Assembly: GCA_020632395.1 (NCBI GenBank)
Contig: JACKFQ010000002.1
Location: 83,662-147,661, forward strand
Length of the DNA stretch: 64,000 nt
Direction: 5' to 3'
From: Candidatus Nomurabacteria bacterium
GTDB taxonomy: Bacteria > Patescibacteriota > Dojkabacteria > SC72 > JAHDCA01
The position numbers were made by a program, and so were the translations under genes. Shown piece by piece: positions 1 through 23,185 of the stretch; the stretch's first letter is position 1; every line of letters starts with the position of its first letter. The notes beneath the pieces are model-generated. The model saw only the letters and a list, made by a program, of their open reading frames with translations. It ran no database searches and was not told the origin of the DNA.

Positions 1-122
1 CGTGGACCCCAATGATGATCGGTCGAACGCTCCGTATCAAATCCAAGTACCTCCGAGCCAGAACCTAGCAATCCAGCAGAGTATTTGAGTCCATGAAATT
101 CTGTTTCGATGAGAGTTTTCAC
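1..122 (-). CDS. N-terminal fragment of a protein running off the left edge; possible Pol-beta-superfamily nucleotidyltransferase (GS-x7-DTE motif)
   Basis: Minus-strand frame reads VKTLIETEFHGLKYSAGLLGSGSEVLGFDTERSTDHHWGP... from a GTG at 122 to beyond position 1. By eye this stretch is about 48% GC, versus under 30% for the adjacent array. Not in the ORF track because it is partial. Confidence 0.3.
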   Translation of the reverse strand, partial: MKTLIETEFHGLKYSAGLLGSGSEVLGFDTERSTDHHWGP

Positions 123-203
123 GACCTCTTTGTAAAATTGTTCACACAGTTGTTATCTTGGAATAAACTTTGTCAAATTTGAAGTATTTAGTTTTTTACT
201 AAC

Positions 204-641
204 CTATTCGAACTTTTTGTAGAACGTTTTTTGTAGATAGCAGGTAATTGCCATTCGACTTGCATCAAAATGAGGTGTCGGGAGATTTTTTGGATCTACC
301 CATAGCCACTCATCGCATTTTTCTGGTTCCATTATTTTCAGCTCACCGGAAAAGTCCTGGGCAAGTAAGGCGATCGAAACGTAGTGTAACCCTTCTTTGT
401 TGTAAGTTTCTAAGTTGTTGGTTACGGCTACCACTCGTGGATTTTTAATGTCCAAGTCGGTTTCTTCTTTAATTTCTCTAATCGCGCCATCTTCAAATGT
501 TTCGCCTGGCTCTAGATGCCCGCCTGGAATGGAATAGTATGGAGCATGGCTATTTTTTCTTTTGCCAATAAGGACTTTTCCGTCGTGATTTACAAGAATC
601 ACGCCTAATCCAACTCTTGGTATGTTTTTTTGTTTCGTCAT
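204..641 (-). CDS. NUDIX hydrolase
   Basis: Nudix box GGHLEPGETFEDGAIREIKEETDL (GX5EX7REUXEEXGU) in the 145 aa ORF. Confidence 0.85.
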   Translation of the reverse strand: MTKQKNIPRVGLGVILVNHDGKVLIGKRKNSHAPYYSIPGGHLEPGETFEDGAIREIKEETDLDIKNPRVVAVTNNLETYNKEGLHYVSIALLAQDFSGELKIMEPEKCDEWLWVDPKNLPTPHFDASRMAITCYLQKTFYKKFE

Positions 642-670
642 ATTTTAGAAAGGTTAGTTTAAAAATCTCG

Positions 671-701
671 CATAACGTTTCCCGATGAAGCGAAGTTTTG
701 C
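671..701. repeat. Cassette-junction conserved block 1, copy A (cATAACGTTtcccgATgaagCGAAGTTTTGC)
   Basis: One of seven related 30-35 bp elements, one in each intergenic region of the 0.2-5.6 kb array. They share the palindromic core ATAACGTTA followed by ATAT and GAAGTTTTGC. Confidence 0.7.
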
Positions 702-764
702 AAATTCCTTATGTAAATTAATATTTATTGGCAAAATTTGGACGGAGAAAACAATAAATTAATT

Positions 765-1142
765 TTAGCTCCGTAACTTTACTATAGTGTCCTTGAGTTT
801 CTTCATCAAATCGTCTTTATCGGTATATTCTATAAATTTATCAGTCACGATTTTTAGTGAGCTAGATGTTCTTTGTCCTGAATGATAAATACAAATAATT
901 GGACACTTTGACAAATCAGCCCACCCAAGCTCGATTCCCAGGCCTGTCGATGGATAAGAAACCTCCGCGATCATTAAGTCGCATGTCTTTATTATATCTC
1001 GCGTTACAAAATCACTAGCGTCTTCATAGGCTTCGTGCGGCAAGATAATTTCATGCTCCGTGTTCAATAAGCTTGAACGAATTGGTTCATATAGCTCTTT
1101 TTCAAAATCGTAATCGGTAGAGTGTCCAATATATATTTTCAT
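765..1142 (-). CDS. Nucleoside 2-deoxyribosyltransferase-like protein (flavodoxin-like fold)
   Basis: Motif STGLGIELGWA resembles the NDT catalytic-Glu motif (G-T-x-x-E-x-G-x-A). Size is 125 aa. Confidence 0.55.
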   Translation of the reverse strand: MKIYIGHSTDYDFEKELYEPIRSSLLNTEHEIILPHEAYEDASDFVTRDIIKTCDLMIAEVSYPSTGLGIELGWADLSKCPIICIYHSGQRTSSSLKIVTDKFIEYTDKDDLMKKLKDTIVKLRS

Positions 1143-1228
1143 AGAAGAGGGGATAAGATTAATTTATTGTTTTATGTAGTCGCATACACATTGTTAGATG
1201 ATGTGACATAATGGATATGGAGTCATTT

Positions 1229-1260
1229 CATATAACGTTAGCGTGTATGCAAAGTATGCC
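1229..1260. repeat. Cassette-junction block 1, copy B (catATAACGTTAGCGTGTATGCaaagtatgcc)
   Basis: Shares the ATATAACGTTAG core. Its stem portion GTGTATGC has an inverted partner GCATACAC at 1182-1189, followed by attGTTAGAT. Confidence 0.65.
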
Positions 1261-1401
1261 TAAGAACGGAACTGATATTATCTTCTCAAGATTTAAGCGA
1301 ATAGGCAAATTGGGGCGAGCCATTTTTAGAAATCAGTTGCACTGGACACGACAAAATGGCTCACAGCATAGCTGCTGTTGTGTGATGTAAAAAGAAAAGC
1401 G

Positions 1402-1794
1402 CTATATGCTCTTCATCTGAATCATTTTTGCCATTGCTATATATAAAACAAGACCTACCGAATAAATGATAATATAGGGGGCAATGGCAATCCAACGGTT
1501 AATGTAAAACAGATCAACATTTTGAAATGATCTTTCTATTGTCGAACCTACTACAAAAAAACTAAGAGCAACTAATGTATTGAGTAGAATTGTAAAATAC
1601 TGCCTACTGTCATCAACATGTATTAACTTTGTAATGAAGTAAGCTATTACGATATAAGCAATGGCAAAAATGCTCGTAATTGGCAATTGCAAAATCCATC
1701 TGCCATCTGAAGGAACATTTAATAACACATAAATTGTGTTTGCCACAAGAATTATCAAGAAACTAATGATAACTGAATTTGCAATTGTTTTCAT
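1402..1794 (-). CDS. Small integral membrane protein (about 4 TM helices), function unknown
   Basis: Hydrophobic segments fill most of the 130 aa ORF. Confidence 0.5.
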   Translation of the reverse strand: MKTIANSVIISFLIILVANTIYVLLNVPSDGRWILQLPITSIFAIAYIVIAYFITKLIHVDDSRQYFTILLNTLVALSFFVVGSTIERSFQNVDLFYINRWIAIAPYIIIYSVGLVLYIAMAKMIQMKSI

Positions 1795-1846
1795 ATGGGT
1801 TTGTTATTAAATAGTAGTAGCATTTTACCATTTCGTTTTGTTTCGT

Positions 1847-1874
1847 ACAACGTTATGGATATGCGGAGTTTTTC
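1847..1874. repeat. Cassette-junction block 1, copy C (acAACGTTATGGATATgCGgAGTTTTTC)
   Basis: Core AACGTTAT plus GGATAT and AGTTTTTC, matching the other junction copies. Confidence 0.6.
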
Positions 1875-1929
1875 TGGAACGTACTGGAGTGAAAGCGCTA
1901 GTGTACCCTGGAGTTTGTCCTTCAACCCG

Positions 1930-2448
1930 TTACTTCTCATCAAGATAAGAATTAATTGCTTCATCAATAATCGTAATATCTTTGATTTTTTTACTTTCAG
2001 GATTTTTACTAAATTCTTTAATCCATTCAATACAGTCATCAATATTTTCAACAACTAAATCAGAAAAGGTCAATAGAAAAGGATGAATCCAATCATCGAT
2101 TTTTGTACCATCAAAAACAATATTTGATCTTCTATGATGTGTATCTTTTGGAATTATTGAAATTACAGGTCTTTTGAAATATTTTGCAATTACCATTTCT
2201 TGAGCAGTTCCAGCTCCAAGTTTCTTCTTAGAATCAACGATGATAATATCTGCTGTTTTTACGAGATTAGAATCATGACCAACTAATTGCAAAGGTTTAG
2301 TTTCATCTTTCCATGCATCACCATCTGTAATTTCAACATTGGGAATTTTTGAAAGTTTTTCTTTGTATTCAACTTTCCAATCTTTCCAATTTTCTCTAAC
2401 ATCATCTCCTTTTGGTATTGAACCTAATAAAAAATTTTTAAGCGTCAT
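1930..2448 (-). CDS. Nucleoside 2-deoxyribosyltransferase-like protein, second paralog
   Basis: Motif KLGAGTAQEMVIAKY resembles the NDT active-site region. Size is 172 aa. The ORF-track entry 1791..2054 is an overlapping shadow ORF. Confidence 0.5.
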   Translation of the reverse strand: MTLKNFLLGSIPKGDDVRENWKDWKVEYKEKLSKIPNVEITDGDAWKDETKPLQLVGHDSNLVKTADIIIVDSKKKLGAGTAQEMVIAKYFKRPVISIIPKDTHHRRSNIVFDGTKIDDWIHPFLLTFSDLVVENIDDCIEWIKEFSKNPESKKIKDITIIDEAINSYLDEK

Positions 2449-2510
2449 ATATTTTGTGAAAATCCTTTATAAATTAAATCTTATTCTTCTAATGGTTGTA
2501 GGGTAAATTT

Positions 2511-2543
2511 CATTTAACGTTCCTGCGTATGCGATGTTTTTGC
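2511..2543. repeat. Cassette-junction block 1, copy D (catTTAACGTTcctgcgTATgCGatgTTTTTGC)
   Basis: Degenerate copy of the junction core. Confidence 0.55.
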
Positions 2544-2550
2544 GACCAAC

Positions 2551-2645
2551 GGGAGCAAAAATATGGGTGAAGCCCGAGCCGAGGGCTGAACCGTATATCC
2601 CTTGTTATACGCCCCGACGACAGAAAGGAGGAGAGCGCAGCGTGG
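2551..2645. repeat. Cassette-junction blocks 2-3, copy D (about 95 bp)
   Basis: About 90% identical by eye to 4401-4494. Contains the CGTATAtcccttgtTATACG hairpin and GGAGGAGAGCGCAGCGTGG. Confidence 0.75.
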
Positions 2646-2774
2646 CTTGAGTTCAAAAAATATTTTTCGTTCTGATTCATCAGAGAGGCTTTCGGTTATT
2701 TCTTATAAATTTGATTTTTTCGTTTTTCTTTTTCCAAGAGGGGTTAGGGATGAATTGGAAAAAATAAAAACTCC

Positions 2775-3440
2775 TTATTCTTTTTCATTAATAACAAACC
2801 ATTCTCCTTCACTAATCACTTCAATTTTGTTGTCAATAATCTTTAATGCAGAATCATCATCAAGTGCATAAATTGTTTTGCTTATTTCTTGACCAACTTT
2901 TTCTATATTTTCTCTTCTCATTTTTTTAAACCATTCAGAATTCAAATGTGGCAAGAAATAAAAATCTACAAAGTTTAAACCTTTTAATTCTTCAGTTTCA
3001 AGCATATCTTCTTCATAAATCACTTGGGATAATTTCAATGCTAAATCAGGATTAGTAACCATACTTCCAGCAGAAACACCAACATAAACTTTATCTTTAA
3101 ATAAATCAGACAACATTTCAGATAAACCTGATTTATTTAGCCATCTCATTAGATGATAAGTATTTCCTCCTTCAAAAAACAAAACATCAGCTCTTTCTAA
3201 ACTCGGTTTCCATATTTTTTCATCAACAGCTGAAATATCAGTAATTTCAATTGATTTGAAATTTTGTTTTTTCAAATTCACTAAATCAGTAATTAGCCAA
3301 TCTTTATCGCCCGATTCAACATTGCTTGCAGTAGGAATAAAAACAACTGTTGTTTCTTCTGGTTTCTTTCCAGTTAATTCAAACAAAGCATTGGCAATTG
3401 AATTGTTTGTTAGTCCGCTTGATGTTAATAGTAGTTTCAT
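2775..3440 (-). CDS. Peptidase E / S51-family dipeptidase
   Basis: LLLTSSG ... FIPTAS ... FFEGGNTYHLMRWL ... VYVGVSAGS match S51 peptidase motifs. Size is 221 aa. Confidence 0.8.
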   Translation of the reverse strand: MKLLLTSSGLTNNSIANALFELTGKKPEETTVVFIPTASNVESGDKDWLITDLVNLKKQNFKSIEITDISAVDEKIWKPSLERADVLFFEGGNTYHLMRWLNKSGLSEMLSDLFKDKVYVGVSAGSMVTNPDLALKLSQVIYEEDMLETEELKGLNFVDFYFLPHLNSEWFKKMRRENIEKVGQEISKTIYALDDDSALKIIDNKIEVISEGEWFVINEKE

Positions 3441-3604
3441 AATAGTAGGAGTAAAGAATTAAAATTTATAAATCAATCGTTTTCGGAACGAAGTGGAGAA
3501 AACACATTATTATCCCCCTCTTTTATTTTAGAAAAAATCAAATTTATTCCCTTTTTAGAAAGCCTATTTTCATTATTCATCTTAGAAAAATATTTTTTGA
3601 ATTT

Positions 3605-3638
3605 CACATAACGTATCCGAATATGAGAAGTTTTTTGC
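3605..3638. repeat. Cassette-junction block 1, copy E (cacATAACGTATCCGaATATgaGAAGTTTTTTGC)
   Basis: Junction core. A possible partner arm CGGATAatcagtGTTATAC lies at 3785-3803, just before the stop codon of the upstream gene. Confidence 0.6.
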
Positions 3639-3813
3639 CGGATTTCCCAGTATTTATGTACAGTTTAGCACATTCGTTCGACATTTGAATATGCTTTAAT
3701 TGATCGCCATTCGTAGGCAAAAAATTTGGATGGAATGAAAAAGACAAGTCCTTAAATTATTCAAAAGTGTCTTTTTCATGGAACCGGATAATCAGTGTTA
3801 TACGAGAGTTGAA

Positions 3814-4341
3814 TTAAGCGGCTCCTAGCAGTTTCAACATTTTCTCAGACCAATCAGTATTGCCCTTTGTTATTTCCTCCTTGAAAAATTTTATCATCAG
3901 CTGTTTTGGCTCATCCGATATTGCACAGTGCTTAATTTCTGGCCAAAATTCACGATACCATAATCCGATATTATCATGTTTTAAGTCGCAAGCACCGCCA
4001 TTTGGATCAGGTTCAATAAACAAAATCCTGTCTACGTGATTTGTAACAGAAGCTCCCAAGCATTGAATACAAGGTTCAAGCGTACTGTATAGAGAGACAA
4101 TTTTTGAATTATCCTTACGAACTTCCGCCAGCTCTTTGCCGTACTTAATTATTAGAGAATTTTCGGCATGATTCACAAAGGATTTTTGTTTATTGATTTC
4201 GTTGCCAGCGACGCCAAGCGTTTTATTATTGATAGCCAAAACAGCCCCCACAGGATAGTTCCCAAGCTTGAAAGTTTCTCTAGCAATACTGATGGCCGAC
4301 TCCAAGCATTGTTTATCGAATTGTGTTATTTCTTGCACCAT
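3814..4341 (-). CDS. CMP/dCMP-type (cytidine/deoxycytidylate family) zinc deaminase
   Basis: HAE (VNHAENSL) and PCxxC (LEPCIQCLG) zinc-binding motifs. Size is 175 aa. Confidence 0.75.
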   Translation of the reverse strand: MVQEITQFDKQCLESAISIARETFKLGNYPVGAVLAINNKTLGVAGNEINKQKSFVNHAENSLIIKYGKELAEVRKDNSKIVSLYSTLEPCIQCLGASVTNHVDRILFIEPDPNGGACDLKHDNIGLWYREFWPEIKHCAISDEPKQLMIKFFKEEITKGNTDWSEKMLKLLGAA

Positions 4342-4360
4342 ACAGAGCTTAATTCAATTT

Positions 4361-4391
4361 CATATAACGTTAGGGATATACGAAGTTTTGC
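4361..4391. repeat. Cassette-junction block 1, copy F (catATAACGTTAGGGATATACGAAGTTTTGC), the best-preserved copy
   Basis: ATATAAC-GTTA-GGGATATACG is the reverse complement of CGTATATCCC-TT-GTTATAC at 4442-4460, with a 2-nt versus 4-nt bulge. Confidence 0.75.
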
Positions 4392-4400
4392 GGAGTGAAA

Positions 4401-4494
4401 CGGAGCAAAATTTGGGTGAGGGGCGAGCCGAGCACCGAACCGTATATCCCTTGTTATACGCCCCGACGACCAAAGGGAGGAGAGCGCAGCGTGG
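4401..4494. repeat. Cassette-junction blocks 2-3, copy F
   Basis: Near-identical to 2551-2645. Contains the right arm of the attC-like inverted repeat. Confidence 0.75.
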
Positions 4495-4516
4495 TTCGTG
4501 GCGATAGCCGAGAAAG

Positions 4517-4553
4517 TCAGAAGTCGGCTTTTTTCTTTTTTATGAGCGCACAC
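4517..4553. repeat. Left arm of an imperfect inverted repeat flanking the methyltransferase gene
   Basis: TCAGAAGTCGGCTTTT ... TGAGCGCACAC are the reverse complements of AAAAGCCGACTTCTGA and GTGTGCGCTCA at 5425-5464. This arm abuts the stop codon. Confidence 0.7.
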
Positions 4554-5381
4554 CTATTTTTTCTTAACAATTATCATCATATGTCCACTTAAATCAACAA
4601 TTATTGGATCGGTGCAAATTTTGTTATGAATGGCTAACCAATTTTTCCATGCTTTTGGATATTTCTTTGCAAATTTATTTGTCGCTTCAGGATTTACATT
4701 TAAGCCTTCAAGACCCACTTTCTCAAGAATTTGCACATCTTTTTTGGTAAAAATGGACTCAAGCTCTGATGAGGTAAAATAATGACAATAGCCATCTCCT
4801 CTCCATTTATAATCTTCACCATCAGATACCAGTCCCTCGAAATGCTTTTTGTAAACTACTTCTTGTGGCCAACCAAGAGGAGTGGCTAGGAGTACCCCAT
4901 ACTTGCTCATTACTGAAACAAAAATTAAAGCACCCTTTTTTGCGACTCTAATTAATTCGTCAATTGCTTTTAGTCTTTCGGATTCTGGGCTGACATGAGA
5001 GAGTGGTCCGCCCAAGCACAATACTACATCAAAAGAATTATTTTCAAATTCAGATAAGTCTGTAATAGACCCCTCTACAATATCTTTAATTTTTGTTTGT
5101 ACCTTTGCTTTTTTAATTTGTTCCCTAGCAAGTTCTAGGTGTTCTGTGACCAAATCCAGAAGAACAACATCATATCCCATTTTTGCCAATTCAATTGAGT
5201 ATCTTCCGGGACCACCACCTGCGTCAAGAATTACTCCAGATTTTGGAAGATATTTTTTTAGGAATTTTATTGATGTGTCAAATTCTATTTTATGAAAGGG
5301 GTCTTGTGCTAATCTATTCCATTCATAAAGAGCATCTTTTTTGTAATTCTTTTTGGTTAGTTTTGTAGTCTTGTTTGCCAT
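4554..5381 (-). CDS. Class I SAM-dependent methyltransferase
   Basis: Motif I VILDAGGGPGRYSIELAK with the acidic residue at VVLLDL. Size is 275 aa. Confidence 0.8.
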   Translation of the reverse strand: MANKTTKLTKKNYKKDALYEWNRLAQDPFHKIEFDTSIKFLKKYLPKSGVILDAGGGPGRYSIELAKMGYDVVLLDLVTEHLELAREQIKKAKVQTKIKDIVEGSITDLSEFENNSFDVVLCLGGPLSHVSPESERLKAIDELIRVAKKGALIFVSVMSKYGVLLATPLGWPQEVVYKKHFEGLVSDGEDYKWRGDGYCHYFTSSELESIFTKKDVQILEKVGLEGLNVNPEATNKFAKKYPKAWKNWLAIHNKICTDPIIVDLSGHMMIIVKKK

Positions 5382-5424
5382 AATAATATTGTAAAGTATA
5401 AATGATTTATAATTGTTGTGTTAA

Positions 5425-5464
5425 GTGTGCGCTCATTCCTTCTTAATTAAAAGCCGACTTCTGA
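5425..5464. repeat. Right arm of the inverted repeat flanking the methyltransferase gene
   Basis: GTGTGCGCTCA ... AAAAGCCGACTTCTGA. A 16-nt and an 11-nt perfect reverse-complement match to 4517-4553, with different spacers. Confidence 0.7.
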
Positions 5465-5466
5465 TT

Positions 5467-5500
5467 GCGTATAACTCGTTACTATACGAAGTGTTTTCGC
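5467..5500. repeat. Cassette-junction block 1, copy G (attI-equivalent position next to the recombinase)
   Basis: gcGTATAACtcGTTActATACGAAGTgTTTTcGC lies between the first array gene and the divergent tyrosine recombinase gene. Confidence 0.6.
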
Positions 5501-5590
5501 AATTTGTACAGAAATGCATATACTATGCGAACAGTTTCTGACAAAATAACTCTAAACTAATTATCAATATCATCTCATAAAAAACAACAA

Positions 5591-6403
5591 ATGAAAAAAG
5601 AAATTACAGCAACTGTACGAGAATTAAAAATTCGCAATTACAGTTCTAAAACAATAAAAAGCTACACTAGTGGAATTCAAAAATACTTTCGGTTCAAGAA
5701 AAATAATTTCCAACAGCTAGATATCCACAATATACAAAACTTTTTACTCTCCTGTTCAGATAAAGGACTGTCTGCTAAGACAAGAGATCTATATTTGAAT
5801 TCAATTAAATTCTATTACCACAACGTCATTAAAACTTCAAAAAAGGTAGACATCAAATCTGCAAAACAAAATAAAAGTCTCCCTGTTATATTGAATCGCA
5901 AGGAAATCACAAAGTTGAGTGAAGTCATAAATAACCCCAAACACAAATTAATCATCTTGCTAGCATATGGAGCAGGATTAAGAGTTAGCGAAGTCGTCAA
6001 CTTAAAGGTCAAGGACGTAGATATTGATAATCTCACACTCCATATTAAGAAAGCCAAGGGGAAAAAGGATAGAATTACTATTATCCCAGAAAAAATTAAG
6101 GATGATCTGAAATTGATAATTAATTCAAGAGATCAAAACGAATATGTTTTTACAAGTGAACGAGGAGGAAATCTTACAACTCGTACTGCACAAAAGATTT
6201 TTACTAATGCTCTGAAAAAAGCAGGAATTAAGAAGGAGACGACATTTCATTCACTACGCCATAGCTTTGCAACTCACTTACTAGAAAACGGAGTTGATAT
6301 CAGATATGTTCAAGAATTACTTGGTCATCAAAATATTAGAACCACACAAAGATATACTCAAGTTACAAATCCGAAACTAAAAAACATTAAAAGTCCCCTC
6401 TGA
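5591..6403 (+). CDS. Tyrosine site-specific recombinase (XerC/XerD/phage-integrase family, 270 aa)
   Basis: Box I LRVSEV, box II HSLRHSFAT, catalytic Tyr in LGHQNIRTTQRYTQV. About 91 residues separate the box I Arg from the box II His, matching the Xer spacing, so no IntI-type insertion. Confidence 0.9.
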   Translation: MKKEITATVRELKIRNYSSKTIKSYTSGIQKYFRFKKNNFQQLDIHNIQNFLLSCSDKGLSAKTRDLYLNSIKFYYHNVIKTSKKVDIKSAKQNKSLPVILNRKEITKLSEVINNPKHKLIILLAYGAGLRVSEVVNLKVKDVDIDNLTLHIKKAKGKKDRITIIPEKIKDDLKLIINSRDQNEYVFTSERGGNLTTRTAQKIFTNALKKAGIKKETTFHSLRHSFATHLLENGVDIRYVQELLGHQNIRTTQRYTQVTNPKLKNIKSPL

Positions 6404-6561
6404 AAAGAAACATTTTCTAAGACTCGAACCCAATTATTAGAGTTATATAGGCATTCTTGCTTATGGAGTGATATTTACCTTACTTTGCGTCATTTCTACG
6501 AACTGCAAGATTAGTCCGCTGTATAAGGCTTTTAAAATGCTGAAGAAAAAGCTGACCTAAC

Positions 6562-6711
6562 TGGTCGGGGAGACAGGACCATCTCGGCAAACATGCCTCG
6601 ATGTATGATGCAGAATAATTCTACTGCATCATAGGTCCCTGCAGTAGGTTCAAGTCCAAATACACCATCCATACAGAGTAAACGACCACCTAACGGTGGT
6701 CATTTACTCTG
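6562..6711. repeat. 150 bp module at the 3' end of tRNA-Pro(CGG); duplicated at 22862-23012
   Basis: Nearly identical to the copy at 22862-23012. Begins with GTCGGGGAGACAGGAC, a 16-nt direct repeat of the tRNA 3' end. Contains the hairpins TGATGCAG/CTGCATCA and GACCACC-TAAC-GGTGGTC. Confidence 0.8.
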
Positions 6712-6785
6712 TCGGGGAGACAGGACTTGAACCTGCGACCTCTGCAACCCGAATGCAGCGTTCTAGCCATCTGAACTACTCCCCG
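6712..6785 (-). tRNA. tRNA-Pro, anticodon CGG
   Basis: Manual cloverleaf: acceptor CGGGGAG/CTCCCCG, D-stem GTTC/GAAC, anticodon arm CTGCA-TTCGGGT-TGCAG, T-arm GCAGG-TTCAAGT-CCTGT, discriminator A. Length 74 nt with no encoded CCA. Confidence 0.85.
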
Positions 6786-6875
6786 AGTACAATATTTCTC
6801 TTAGGTATATCTGGCAAATGAGCCTTATAATAACAACTTTACGAACGTAGTACTATATACGAATTCCACTATCCA

Positions 6876-22861: not shown

Positions 22862-23012
22862 CTGGTCGGGGAGACAGGACCATCTCGGCAAATATGCCTC
22901 GATGTATGATGCAGAATAATTCTACTGCATCATAGGTCCCTGCAGCAGGTTCAAGTCCAAATACACCATCCATACAAAGTAAACGACCACCTAACGGTGG
23001 TCATTTACTCTG
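22862..23012. repeat. 150 bp module at the 3' end of tRNA-Pro(GGG); second copy
   Basis: Near-identical to 6562-6711, including the 16-nt direct repeat of the tRNA 3' end and both hairpins. Confidence 0.8.
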
Positions 23013-23086
23013 TCGGGGAGACAGGACTTGAACCTGCGACCTCTTGCACCCCATGCAAGCGCTCTAGCCATCTGAACTACTCCCCG
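23013..23086 (-). tRNA. tRNA-Pro, anticodon GGG
   Basis: Identical to the 6712-6785 tRNA except in the anticodon arm: CTTGC-ATGGGGT-GCAAG here versus CTGCA-TTCGGGT-TGCAG there, and one D-stem base. Confidence 0.85.
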
Positions 23087-23185
23087 ATAAGGATATTGTA
23101 CATTATGAGAACGAAAATAGTAACAGGAAAAGGGCTGTGTGCCCTTTTCAAGAAATATGTTAATAGTAATGAGAGCCAATAATTA

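Follow-up and report, generated by a model that had tools for sequence, protein, structure and literature searches.

Why should a single methyltransferase gene, which carries no transposase, be bracketed by long inverted repeats? The gene lies near one end of a 64-kb window, the whole stretch of Candidatus Nomurabacteria DNA that was analyzed. An earlier note, made from the sequence alone, described imperfect inverted repeats of 37-40 bp with perfect arms of 16 and 11 nt. It proposed either a mobilisable, MITE-like module that captured the gene or long-range pairing between the 5' and 3' UTRs of the mRNA. We favor, with moderate confidence, a third reading, in which the repeats are the two strands of an unusually long recombination hairpin belonging to a mobile gene cassette. 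The cassette is part of an integron-like array of the CPR (Patescibacteria) whose recombinase and insertion site resemble Xer and dif rather than those of a classical integron.

The features needed to follow the argument are these, where R and L boxes are named as in integron attC sites and a slash marks a crossover or breakpoint:
5591-6403, plus strand: tyrosine recombinase (270 aa), Xer/IntI-like, transcribed away from the cassette array
5464-5492, minus strand: attI-like insertion site with a dif-like 11-7-11 layout, ACTTCGTATAG (left arm), TAACGAG (center), TTATACGCAAT (right arm), with the crossover inferred at G(5475)/T(5474)
4368-5474, minus strand: methyltransferase gene cassette (1107 nt), the first cassette of the array
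5449-5464, minus strand: 5' arm A (TCAGAAGTCGGCTTTT), which starts at the last base of the 11-nt right arm, or R' box
5425-5436, minus strand: 5' arm B (ATGAGCGCACAC)
5409-5427, minus strand: 5' arm C (CACTTAACACAACAATTAT), complementary to the 3' end of the ORF at 4586-4604
4554-5381, minus strand: class I SAM-dependent methyltransferase ORF (275 aa), the cargo of the cassette
4542-4553, minus strand: 3' arm B' (GTGTGCGCTCAT), abutting the stop codon
4517-4532, minus strand: 3' arm A' (AAAAGCCGACTTCTGA)
4462-4516, minus strand: conserved GC-rich 55-nt insert between the outer stem and R'', forming an asymmetric side branch in the predicted fold
4368-4461, minus strand: attC core, with R'' (GCGTATAAC) at 4453-4461, L'' at 4441-4452, an apical stem, L' at 4372-4382 and the G of R' at 4368
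4347-4368, minus strand: start of the deaminase cassette (GTTATATGAAATTGAATTAAGC), complementary to its own R'' plus an extension at 3797-3819
3530-3600, minus strand: 5' arm of the neighboring peptidase-S51 cassette (2518-3611)
2652-2721, minus strand: 3' arm of the peptidase-S51 cassette
1149-1173, minus strand: 5' arm of the cassette carrying the ORF at 765-1142, with its partner at 748-772

The repeat itself is real, as the earlier note had stated. An inverted-repeat search recovers the 16-nt pair at 4517-4532 and 5449-5464 with 100% complementarity, and a second pair at 4542-4556 and 5422-5436 (15 nt, 93%) whose perfect core is 12 nt rather than the 11 nt given in the note. A third collinear block, not previously noted, pairs 4586-4604 with 5409-5427 (19 nt, 89%) and reaches into the last codons of the ORF. 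The 5' arms lie 43-83 nt upstream of the ATG. Chance is rejected by shuffling, because local alignment of the 5' flank against the 3' flank gives a score of 32, whereas the maximum in 300 shuffles is 27. Searches allowing up to 3 mismatches show that both arm sequences are unique in the window apart from these two copies. One statement of the note is wrong, namely that no such repeat is seen around the other array genes. The same sequence is indeed absent there, but three further cassettes of the six complete ones in the window have their own significant bracketing repeats. These are located at 748-772 and 1149-1173 (25 nt, 88%; score 35 against a shuffle maximum of 31), at 2652-2721 and 3530-3600, and at 3797-3819 and 4347-4368 (score 29 against a shuffle maximum of 23).

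What kind of array carries these genes? The adjacent recombinase matches Pfam Phage_integrase (6e-45), and its score of 232.8 bits with the NCBIfam model recomb_XerA_Arch is above the cut-off of 220. In contrast, the integron integrase model TIGR02249 matches in two stretches and scores 212.8, below its cut-off of 265. The best PDB match is V. cholerae IntI4 (VchIntIA, 2a3v), but 22 query residues (175-196) stand in place of IntI4 residues 179-243. Thus, the additional domain around patch III that defines IntI (PMC9668308) is absent, and the recombinase does not satisfy this criterion for an integron in the sense of IntegronFinder or Messier and Roy. Full-length alignments in one stretch are obtained with the XerA structures 4a8e and 5hxy.

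The insertion site is likewise dif-like. A conserved site lies about 115 nt upstream of the recombinase start in 56 related loci, and its arms match E. coli and B. subtilis dif (sequences from PMC3025954) at 6.7-8.1 of 11 positions, against a background of about 3 of 11. The left arm matches the reverse complement of the right arm at 7.1 of 11 positions, and the central region is 7 nt rather than 6. On whether the site could be the chromosome's dimer-resolution site at the replication terminus, served by the housekeeping Xer, GC skew does not change sign within the window, which does not include the sequence to the left of the array.

Six attC-type junctions in positions 1-5500 share GTTRNNYGMAAT, a motif that across 80 CPR loci occurs almost only upstream of the recombinase and in cassette orientation. 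A position weight matrix finds 137 attC-type junctions with strong strand bias, and each cassette of the array ends in an imperfect palindrome with R'', L'', L' and R' boxes and conserved AAC and GTT.

Comparison among contexts reveals what moves. The methyltransferase, which matches Pfam Methyltransf_25, _11 and _31, has 2330 homologues at E<=1e-20, some in cassettes and some in ordinary gene contexts. Related loci are numbered here with the prefix L, and W denotes the window. The same cassette occurs behind eight different upstream sequences, following attI or six different attCs (W, L090, L092/93, L095, L096, L100, L101, L102): it lies behind attI in W and L102, behind an attI-like remnant in L090, and behind different attCs in L092/93, L095, L096, L100 and L101. 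At least three different cassettes follow it. Homology always starts at G/TTATACGCAA, 10-11 nt outside the repeat, and ends about 150 nt beyond the repeat on the downstream side, at the end of the attC. The Logan contig L009 ends exactly at 5475. The mobile unit is therefore the integron-type cassette and not the segment from repeat to repeat. Moreover, the arms are tied to the cassette rather than to the gene, because methyltransferase homologues outside cassettes (L091, L097-L099, L103) lack them.

How do the arms relate to the recombination site? Arm A begins at cassette position 11-12, right after the conserved 11-nt box that opens every cassette, and the 3' arm lies just upstream of the attC hairpin. 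When the cassette is circularized in silico, its own junction folds at -59.3 kcal/mol (z = -8.9), with arms C, B and A stacked on the R''-R' and L''-L' pairings, such that the arms extend the attC stem outward. The real array junction, which carries the leader of the next cassette, folds at only -34.8 kcal/mol (z = -0.4). In this cassette the helix is interrupted by the 55-nt side branch. Homologous inserts of 46-59 nt occur at the same position in at least 9 cassettes of other loci, and the insert is part of a repeat shared with 2558-2645 and with L069, L040, L019, L031 and L077.

The pairing also appears to be under constraint. Across seven homologous cassettes, 91.3% of cells are paired, against 37-48% in slid controls, and five pairs have changed on both sides, a number that none of 500 shuffles reached. 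This covariation rests on seven related sequences. Arms persist between cassette copies whose proteins have diverged to 83-88% identity.

Such arms are general in CPR arrays. Among 106 cassettes from 38 related loci, the median complementarity score of a cassette's own two ends is 27.5, against 18 for non-self pairs, and a score of 30 or more occurs in 45% against 0.9% (Mann-Whitney p = 1e-29). Further controls yield 4% for direct repeats, 1% for reversed sequence, 2% for complement only and 1.6% for non-self pairs from the same locus. In 45 strongly armed cassettes, the 5' arm starts at position 12 in 25, and the 3' arm is exactly contiguous with R'' in 13 and separated from it by a conserved 42-59-nt insert in about 12 more. 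Cassettes proximal to attI, which are the most recent insertions in classical integrons, have stronger arms than later ones (median 36 against 24, p = 1e-4). However, boundaries in other loci come from our own position weight matrix, and missed boundaries could contribute to this difference.

Together, these observations lead us to propose that the two arms are an outward extension of the cassette's own attC hairpin. In the free cassette, whether circular or single-stranded, the order would be 3' arm, attC core, 11-nt recombinase-binding box and 5' arm, with a circular junction reading ...CCCTAACG/TTATACGCAATCAGAAG, and this would fold into one long imperfect hairpin. Integration by strand exchange at G/TT, inside one strand of that hairpin, would leave the 5' arm at the head of the integrated cassette and the 3' arm plus attC at its tail, which brackets the gene. 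Our analysis establishes the cassette boundaries, the mobility of the cassette as a unit, the geometry of the arms relative to the attC, the computed fold, the compensatory changes and the generality of such arms. We only infer, in contrast, that the stem keeps the 11-bp binding arm (cassette positions 1-11 paired with R'') fully double-stranded in folded single-stranded DNA, which would let a Xer-like recombinase without the integron-specific domain use the site, much as the CTX-phi attP hairpin mimics dif. We likewise infer that in single-stranded array DNA the arms could bring the two flanking sites together for excision. Folding of the DNA in vivo and action of this recombinase on single strands are without direct evidence, and in the integrated state the arms are about 900 nt apart. 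Mismatches in the arms show no strand bias (52 G:T, 55 A:C), so that a structure used on one DNA strand only, as in classical integrons, where the folded bottom strand of attC is recombined and its extrahelical bases are recognized by the integrase, is not indicated.

Could the arms instead be a functionless relic? In this view, which we consider doubtful but not excluded, cassettes are born as long palindromes, either by capture of a gene into a pre-existing palindromic empty cassette or by fold-back copying at the attC hairpin, and the arms then simply decay. The same chassis of leader, trailer and attC surrounds unrelated genes in W (peptidase S51), L069 and L031, and the cassettes L087_137 and L035_137 have 98% identical ends but different cargo. 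For the S51-type leader, trailers were found only in W, L069 and L031, whereas alignments with L024, L044 and L060 were low-complexity noise. Minimal cassettes without an ORF exist, arms are weaker in attI-distal cassettes, and the parity of mismatch types also fits neutral decay of a palindrome. The five compensatory double changes within one cassette family, and the persistence of arms between diverged copies, speak against this view. Regardless, it concerns origin and is compatible with our structural identification.

Slightly less likely still is that the pairing serves the mRNA. Pairing of the 5' and 3' UTRs of each cassette transcript could close off the mRNA for stability, create an RNase III processing stem that cuts cassette mRNAs out of an array transcript (as in rRNA precursors), or mask the translation start. 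The conserved pairing potential with compensatory changes fits this possibility. In several homologues the complementarity runs up to the start codon and into the stop-codon region, and in the S51-type leader it covers a Shine-Dalgarno-like GAGGGGG. A promoter-like site in attI (5510 to 5481) would place the whole 5' arm in the mRNA, so that an RNA role is not excluded, although a better match (5424 to 5395, 10 of 12) lies downstream of arms A and B. On the other side, selected RNA helices normally show a clear excess of G:U-type over A:C-type mismatches. The parity observed here argues against an RNA-only structure, but does not settle DNA versus RNA. The anchoring of the arms to the recombination boxes would not be required by an mRNA function. 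Strong arms also occur in a reverse-oriented cassette (L064 2740) and in cassettes with little coding potential (L087 1866, L077 142), although this sample is small, and only 3 reverse-oriented cassettes were found, too few for a test of ORF orientation. Searches of positions 1-5700 with Rfam 15 gave no hits at gathering thresholds and no relevant hits up to E = 10, nor did the DUF1874 motif discussed as a possible unusual attC (PMC5737381) match, assuming that it is in Rfam 15. A terminator scan found none at the arms. By eye, AGCCGA-N12-TCGGCT followed by a T-run on the plus strand (4505-4541) looks like an antisense terminator, with a loop longer than the scan allows.

A MITE-like or IS-derived module, whose terminal repeats of about 40 nt around a single non-transposase gene would be used in trans by a transposase, is very unlikely and already contradicted. 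No further copies of the arms occur in the window or, by blastn-short, in 80 related loci, where only T-rich low-complexity matches appeared, and every cassette has different arms. Target-site duplication is absent (GAGAAAG/ versus /TTGCGTA), and the breakpoints lie at the attC or attI crossover rather than at the repeat ends. Nine contigs with the identical protein are collinear with the window and have invariant arms, the only indel being a 7-nt deletion next to the recombinase start. The condition that had been set to refute the earlier proposal, unique arms and a segment that is never polymorphic, is formally fulfilled for the repeat-to-repeat segment, but this refutes only the MITE reading. 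Overall, the interpretation offered in the note holds in part, because pairing of the two ends is supported as a potential under constraint, with a geometry that ties it to the attC hairpin rather than to the mRNA. Equally unlikely is an invertible segment flipped by the neighboring tyrosine recombinase (phase variation), since the nine exact-protein contigs and eight diverged contexts show a single orientation relative to the outer flanks, the arms do not resemble the conserved site of the recombinase, and the repeats differ in every cassette.

A broader possibility, which we put forward only tentatively, is that the CPR carry a widespread cassette-array system that works like an integron but is built on a Xer-type recombinase without the integron-specific domain and on a dif-like attI. 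Its hairpin sites would be extended by long cassette-specific stems so that the folded single strand mimics duplex dif, making the system an extant analogue, or a relic, of the Xer/IMEX ancestor proposed for integrons (PMC4792948). The recurring non-coding chassis and the ORF-less minimal cassettes would then show how new cassettes are made, by placing genes into a pre-existing palindromic empty cassette. How integrons arose from Xer-like recombinases, and how cassettes and their attC sites are created, are long-standing questions. This locus and its relatives in many CPR lineages offer a natural system in which the recombinase still looks like Xer, the insertion site still looks like dif, and the cassette site is a long double-strand-like hairpin. 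With the same end modules recurring around different genes, it becomes testable with cloned components whether such a recombinase recombines folded single strands without the I2 domain, whether the extended stem substitutes for that domain, and how genes enter a cassette. There is also a practical consequence, because integron-finding software that requires the IntI domain will miss or mislabel these arrays, and assemblies break at their repeats, such that most contigs carrying this cassette are 1-2 kb long. Literature searches for integrons in CPR/Patescibacteria and for extended attC stems found nothing specific, although prior description cannot be excluded because most subscription journals were outside their reach.

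Among known systems, the closest are integron gene cassettes and their attC sites (59-base elements), especially the sedentary chromosomal integrons such as the Vibrio arrays. Shared with these are a divergently transcribed tyrosine recombinase, an adjacent attI at the head of a one-directional array of mostly single-gene cassettes, the attC box architecture, the crossover at G/TT that causes the first bases of a cassette to pair with its own R'', and movement of the cassette as a unit. Here, however, complementarity does not stop at the 7-bp R box but covers a conserved 11-12-nt box and then 15 to more than 80 further nucleotides, with a median 5' UTR of 69 nt, so that the ORF is bracketed by cassette-specific inverted repeats. 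Class 1 and Vibrio cassettes are not known to carry such arms. The absence of the IntI-specific domain and the dif-like attI are further differences.

In CTX-phi-type IMEX integration, Xer recombinases act on a folded single-stranded attP hairpin that mimics dif (PMC4792948). The present system similarly combines a Xer-type recombinase lacking an I2-like domain, a target site that resembles dif, and an incoming element whose site is a long, largely double-strand-like hairpin, although single-strand integration is here only inferred. The elements in this case are single-gene cassettes stacked in arrays of at least seven next to the recombinase gene, with integron-type R and L boxes and without phage functions.

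MITEs resemble the cassette in having short terminal inverted repeats around a segment that encodes no transposase, but here there is no multi-copy family, no target-site duplication, and the repeat ends are not the mobility breakpoints. Finally, the pdif modules of Acinetobacter also present genes bracketed by inverted repeats in a Xer-related recombination context (PMC7399989). In pdif modules the bracketing repeats are themselves the 28-bp Xer sites, whereas here arms A and B are not inverted copies of each other, the arms are unrelated to the recombinase site and differ in every cassette, and the dif-like boxes lie outside the arms, in direct orientation along the array.

The inverted repeat lies where the earlier note placed it, and that observation therefore holds. 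Specifically, the sequence TCAGAAGTCGGCTTTT on the plus strand is perfectly complementary to its upstream partner, as is ATGAGCGCACAC, and a third collinear block reaches into the last codons of the gene. The paired segments and the gene that they bracket are as follows.

4517-4532 (TCAGAAGTCGGCTTTT on the plus strand), perfectly complementary to 5449-5464: arms A' and A
4542-4553 (ATGAGCGCACAC on the plus strand), perfectly complementary to 5425-5436: arms B' and B
4586-4604, paired with 5409-5427 over 19 nt (89%): the third block, including arm C
4554-5381, minus strand: the gene for a class I SAM-dependent methyltransferase of 275 amino acids

The arms have no other copy in the window, and the complementarity between the two flanks of the gene exceeds that of all 300 shuffled controls.

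The region from 1 to 5500 is a one-directional array of small genes on the minus strand, separated by imperfect palindromes, in which each junction reads on the minus strand as AAC followed by GTTRNNYGMAAT. To the right of the array, and transcribed divergently from it, lies a gene for a 270-amino-acid tyrosine recombinase (5591-6403). Just downstream of the recombinase gene is the first copy of a 236-nt direct repeat (6561-6796 and 22862-23097, 93% identity) that contains tRNA-Pro(CGG) and tRNA-Pro(GGG). The window is bacterial, with a class A RNase P. GC skew of the plus strand is negative almost throughout positions 1-64000 (cumulative -6.3). The cassette genes therefore lie on the G-rich strand and the attC bottom strands on the other, which is the orientation reported for sedentary chromosomal integrons (PMC5371416).

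The closest relatives of the recombinase (55-85% identity) lie in 80 contigs of genome assemblies (our loci L010-L089), nearly all of which are labelled CPR/Patescibacteria, including WWE3, Dojkabacteria and Saccharibacteria. One contig labelled as archaeal (L052; MCBF01000001.1, Candidatus Altiarchaeales archaeon IMC4) encodes a 60% identical recombinase with the same attI-type site upstream, which could reflect cross-domain spread or a binning or labelling issue. Several other hits are labelled Gammaproteobacteria, Pseudomonadales or similar, and look like mis-binned CPR contigs. In these 80 loci the junction motif is found almost only upstream of the recombinase, and only in the orientation that points away from it. 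One copy lies about 115 nt from the recombinase start in 56 loci, and we term this site attI. The methyltransferase gene is therefore the cargo of the first cassette (4368-5474, 1107 nt).

Read on the minus strand, the cassette starts with the conserved 11-nt box TTATACGCAAT, and arm A begins at the last base of that box. After the stop codon come arm B', a spacer and arm A', followed by a 55-nt GC-rich segment (4462-4516) and then by the attC core, which consists of R'' GCGTATAAC, L'', an apical stem, L', and the R' G at 4368. When the tail of the cassette is joined in silico to its own head, as it would be in an excised circle, the sequence is predicted to fold into one long hairpin in which arms C, B and A stack outside R''/R' and L''/L'. 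The predicted energy is -59.3 kcal/mol, against -31 kcal/mol for shuffled sequences (z = -8.9). By contrast, the real array junction, where the attC is followed by the head of the next cassette, folds no better than shuffled sequences (-34.8 kcal/mol, z = -0.4). In this view, the bracketing repeat would be what remains visible when a crossover between the G and the TT of the junction cuts one strand of a long hairpin about 10 nt from where the outer stem begins.

On the plus strand at 4505-4541, AGCCGA-N12-TCGGCT followed by TTTTTTCTTTTTT looks like an intrinsic terminator facing antisense to the cassette gene, although a terminator scan did not call it because the loop is too long. Similar T-rich tracts (CCTTTTCTTTTTTGG) recur at cassette heads in other loci.

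The cassette, rather than the segment bounded by the repeat, is the mobile unit. The identical protein is encoded on nine short contigs from public read sets, all of which are collinear with the window and have invariant arms. One of these contigs ends exactly at 5475, and six end at 4441 inside the attC repeat. Homologous cassettes (83-88% protein identity) were recovered behind eight different upstream sequences, namely an attI (the window itself and L102), an attI-like remnant (L090) and different attCs (L092/93, L095, L096, L100 and L101), where the L numbers denote contigs carrying methyltransferase homologs. In every case but L090, where part of the box is missing, similarity to the window begins at GTTATACGCAA or GTTATGTGCAA. 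Where the contig is long enough, similarity continues through the attC to the next G-TT crossover point, after which different cassettes follow. In L101, the methyltransferase cassette is followed by a cassette head nearly identical to that of the deaminase cassette in the window (compare 3612-5474), but the pair follows another attC instead of attI. The two-cassette block is thus conserved while the upstream context differs. Homologs in ordinary gene neighborhoods (L091, L097-L099 and L103) have neither the arms nor an attC.

To examine whether the pairing is maintained, we aligned the 3' and 5' arm regions of seven cassette versions. Standard pairs are formed in 91.3% of cells, against 37-48% when the partners are slid by one to three columns. 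Five pairs show changes on both sides that preserve pairing, a number that none of 500 shuffles reached. Examples include G-C to A-T in arm A of L092, two pairs in arm A of L096, and C-G to T-A and to A-T in arm B of L095/L100 and L101. Given that only seven related sequences are compared, this evidence is supportive rather than conclusive.

Such arms are not confined to the methyltransferase cassette, as three further cassettes of the six complete ones in the window have their own bracketing repeats. We used a position weight matrix of the junction to delimit 106 cassettes in 38 loci, and then compared cassette positions 12-110 with the last 330 nt of the same cassette. The median local complementarity score was 27.5, against 18 for non-self pairs, and scores of 30 or more occurred in 45% of cassettes against 0.9% of non-self pairs (Mann-Whitney p = 1e-29). 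Other controls (direct repeats, reversed sequence, complement only, and non-self pairs within one locus) gave 1-4%. Twenty-nine of the 38 loci contribute to the result, and the arms reach 82 nt in one locus (L087). Among 45 strongly armed cassettes, the 5' arm starts at position 12 in 25 and the 3' arm is exactly contiguous with R'' in 13, whereas in about a dozen it is separated from R'' by a GC-rich insert of 42-59 nt that is homologous to 4462-4516. Cassettes proximal to attI have stronger arms than later ones (median 36 versus 24, p = 1e-4), although missed boundaries in distal cassettes could inflate this difference.

The insert forms part of a larger GC-rich module (4407-4516 and 2558-2645 in the window; also L069, L040, L019, L031, L077, L014, L026-L029 and L074) that is conserved at 87-93% between distant CPR lineages. 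The module comprises a 46-59-nt insert 5' of R'', then R''-L'', and then a GC-rich bulge. This degree of sequence conservation is unusual because attC sites normally conserve structure rather than sequence. No Rfam family matches the module.

Some non-coding parts recur around different genes. The peptidase-S51 cassette (2518-3611) shares a leader of about 150 nt (3441-3611 in the window) with cassettes in six other loci that carry unrelated genes (L024, L031, L044, L060, L069 and L102), and with two of them it also shares the complementary trailer (2652-2721 in the window) and the 88-nt attC module. The leader also contains a stretch resembling an attC central hairpin (TTTTCTCCGCTTCGCTCCGAAAAC). 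Similarly, L087 and L035 share 62 nt at the head and 66 nt at the tail (98% identity) around different genes and different inner attC parts. Short cassettes of 166-187 nt that lack an ORF also exist, in which the cassette head pairs directly with R'' (L059, 99-286 and 3385-3572; L078, 77-243; coordinates on the reverse complement of the sequence upstream of the recombinase), and one of them is present twice, identically, in the same array. These observations suggest that non-coding palindromic end modules, which might be viewed as a reusable cassette chassis, can acquire different cargo, and this bears on how cassettes are made.

Does the stem act in DNA or in RNA? If it were selected in the mRNA, then G:U-compatible mismatches should outnumber A:C mismatches, but they do not (52 versus 55 among about 2,200 aligned positions). 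However, parity is also not what a structure formed only by the bottom strand predicts. The anchoring of the arms to the recombination boxes also points to DNA, as does their presence in one reverse-oriented cassette and in some nearly ORF-less cassettes, although that sample is small. A functionless relic remains possible but unlikely, and we regard a role in RNA as slightly less likely still. The latter is retained in part because divergent promoter-like hexamer pairs overlap attI (5481-5524). TGTACA-18-TATAGT on the minus strand (5510->5481) points into the cassettes and would place the 5' arm in a transcript, whereas TTCGCA-17-TATACT on the plus strand points towards the recombinase. A third site, TTAACA-18-TATACT (5424->5395), lies in the methyltransferase 5' UTR downstream of arms A and B. 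Finally, a MITE or an invertible segment is excluded by the positions of the breakpoints and by the absence of a target-site duplication and of any inverted copy. The interpretation offered in the earlier note is partly supported, in that its MITE-like module is ruled out whereas long-range pairing of the two ends is supported as a pairing potential under constraint, although the geometry ties this pairing to the attC recombination hairpin rather than to the mRNA.

The recombinase has V. cholerae IntI4 as its best solved relative and is IntI-like at both ends. However, 22 residues stand in place of IntI4 residues 179-243 (about 65 residues), which constitute the integron-specific domain, and the protein aligns end to end with archaeal XerA structures. 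It passes the NCBIfam XerA cut-off and fails the integron-integrase cut-off. The missing domain is treated as defining for integron integrases (PMC9668308). The attI (5464-5492) has the 11-7-11 layout of a dif site, with ACTTCGTATAG, TAACGAG and TTATACGCAAT as its left arm, center and right arm, respectively. Across 56 loci, the left arm matches the dif sites of E. coli and B. subtilis (PMC3025954) at 6.7 and 7.0 of 11 positions, and the right arm matches at 8.1 and 7.2 of 11, against a background of about 3 of 11.

Escudero et al. proposed that integrons descend from a Xer-like recombinase and IMEX-type elements, and noted that the CTX-phi hairpin mimics double-stranded DNA because XerCD lack an I2-like domain (PMC4792948). 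The CPR arrays fit that description. The cassette boundaries, the folding predictions and the sequence comparisons are results of our analysis, whereas we only infer that the long outer stems would be the means by which the folded site presents a fully paired 11-bp binding arm.

We found no description of integron-like arrays in CPR, or of attC stems extended into cassette-bracketing repeats, in the literature that could be searched, whose coverage is incomplete. We consider the repeat itself to be explained, and the system that it reveals to deserve further attention. By the criteria of sites, array and mobility, the structure works like an integron cassette. Because the recombinase fails the integrase-domain criterion, we do not classify the array as a canonical integron. 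In its recombinase type, its site type and its double-strand-like hairpin, the system resembles Xer integration of the CTX-phi type.
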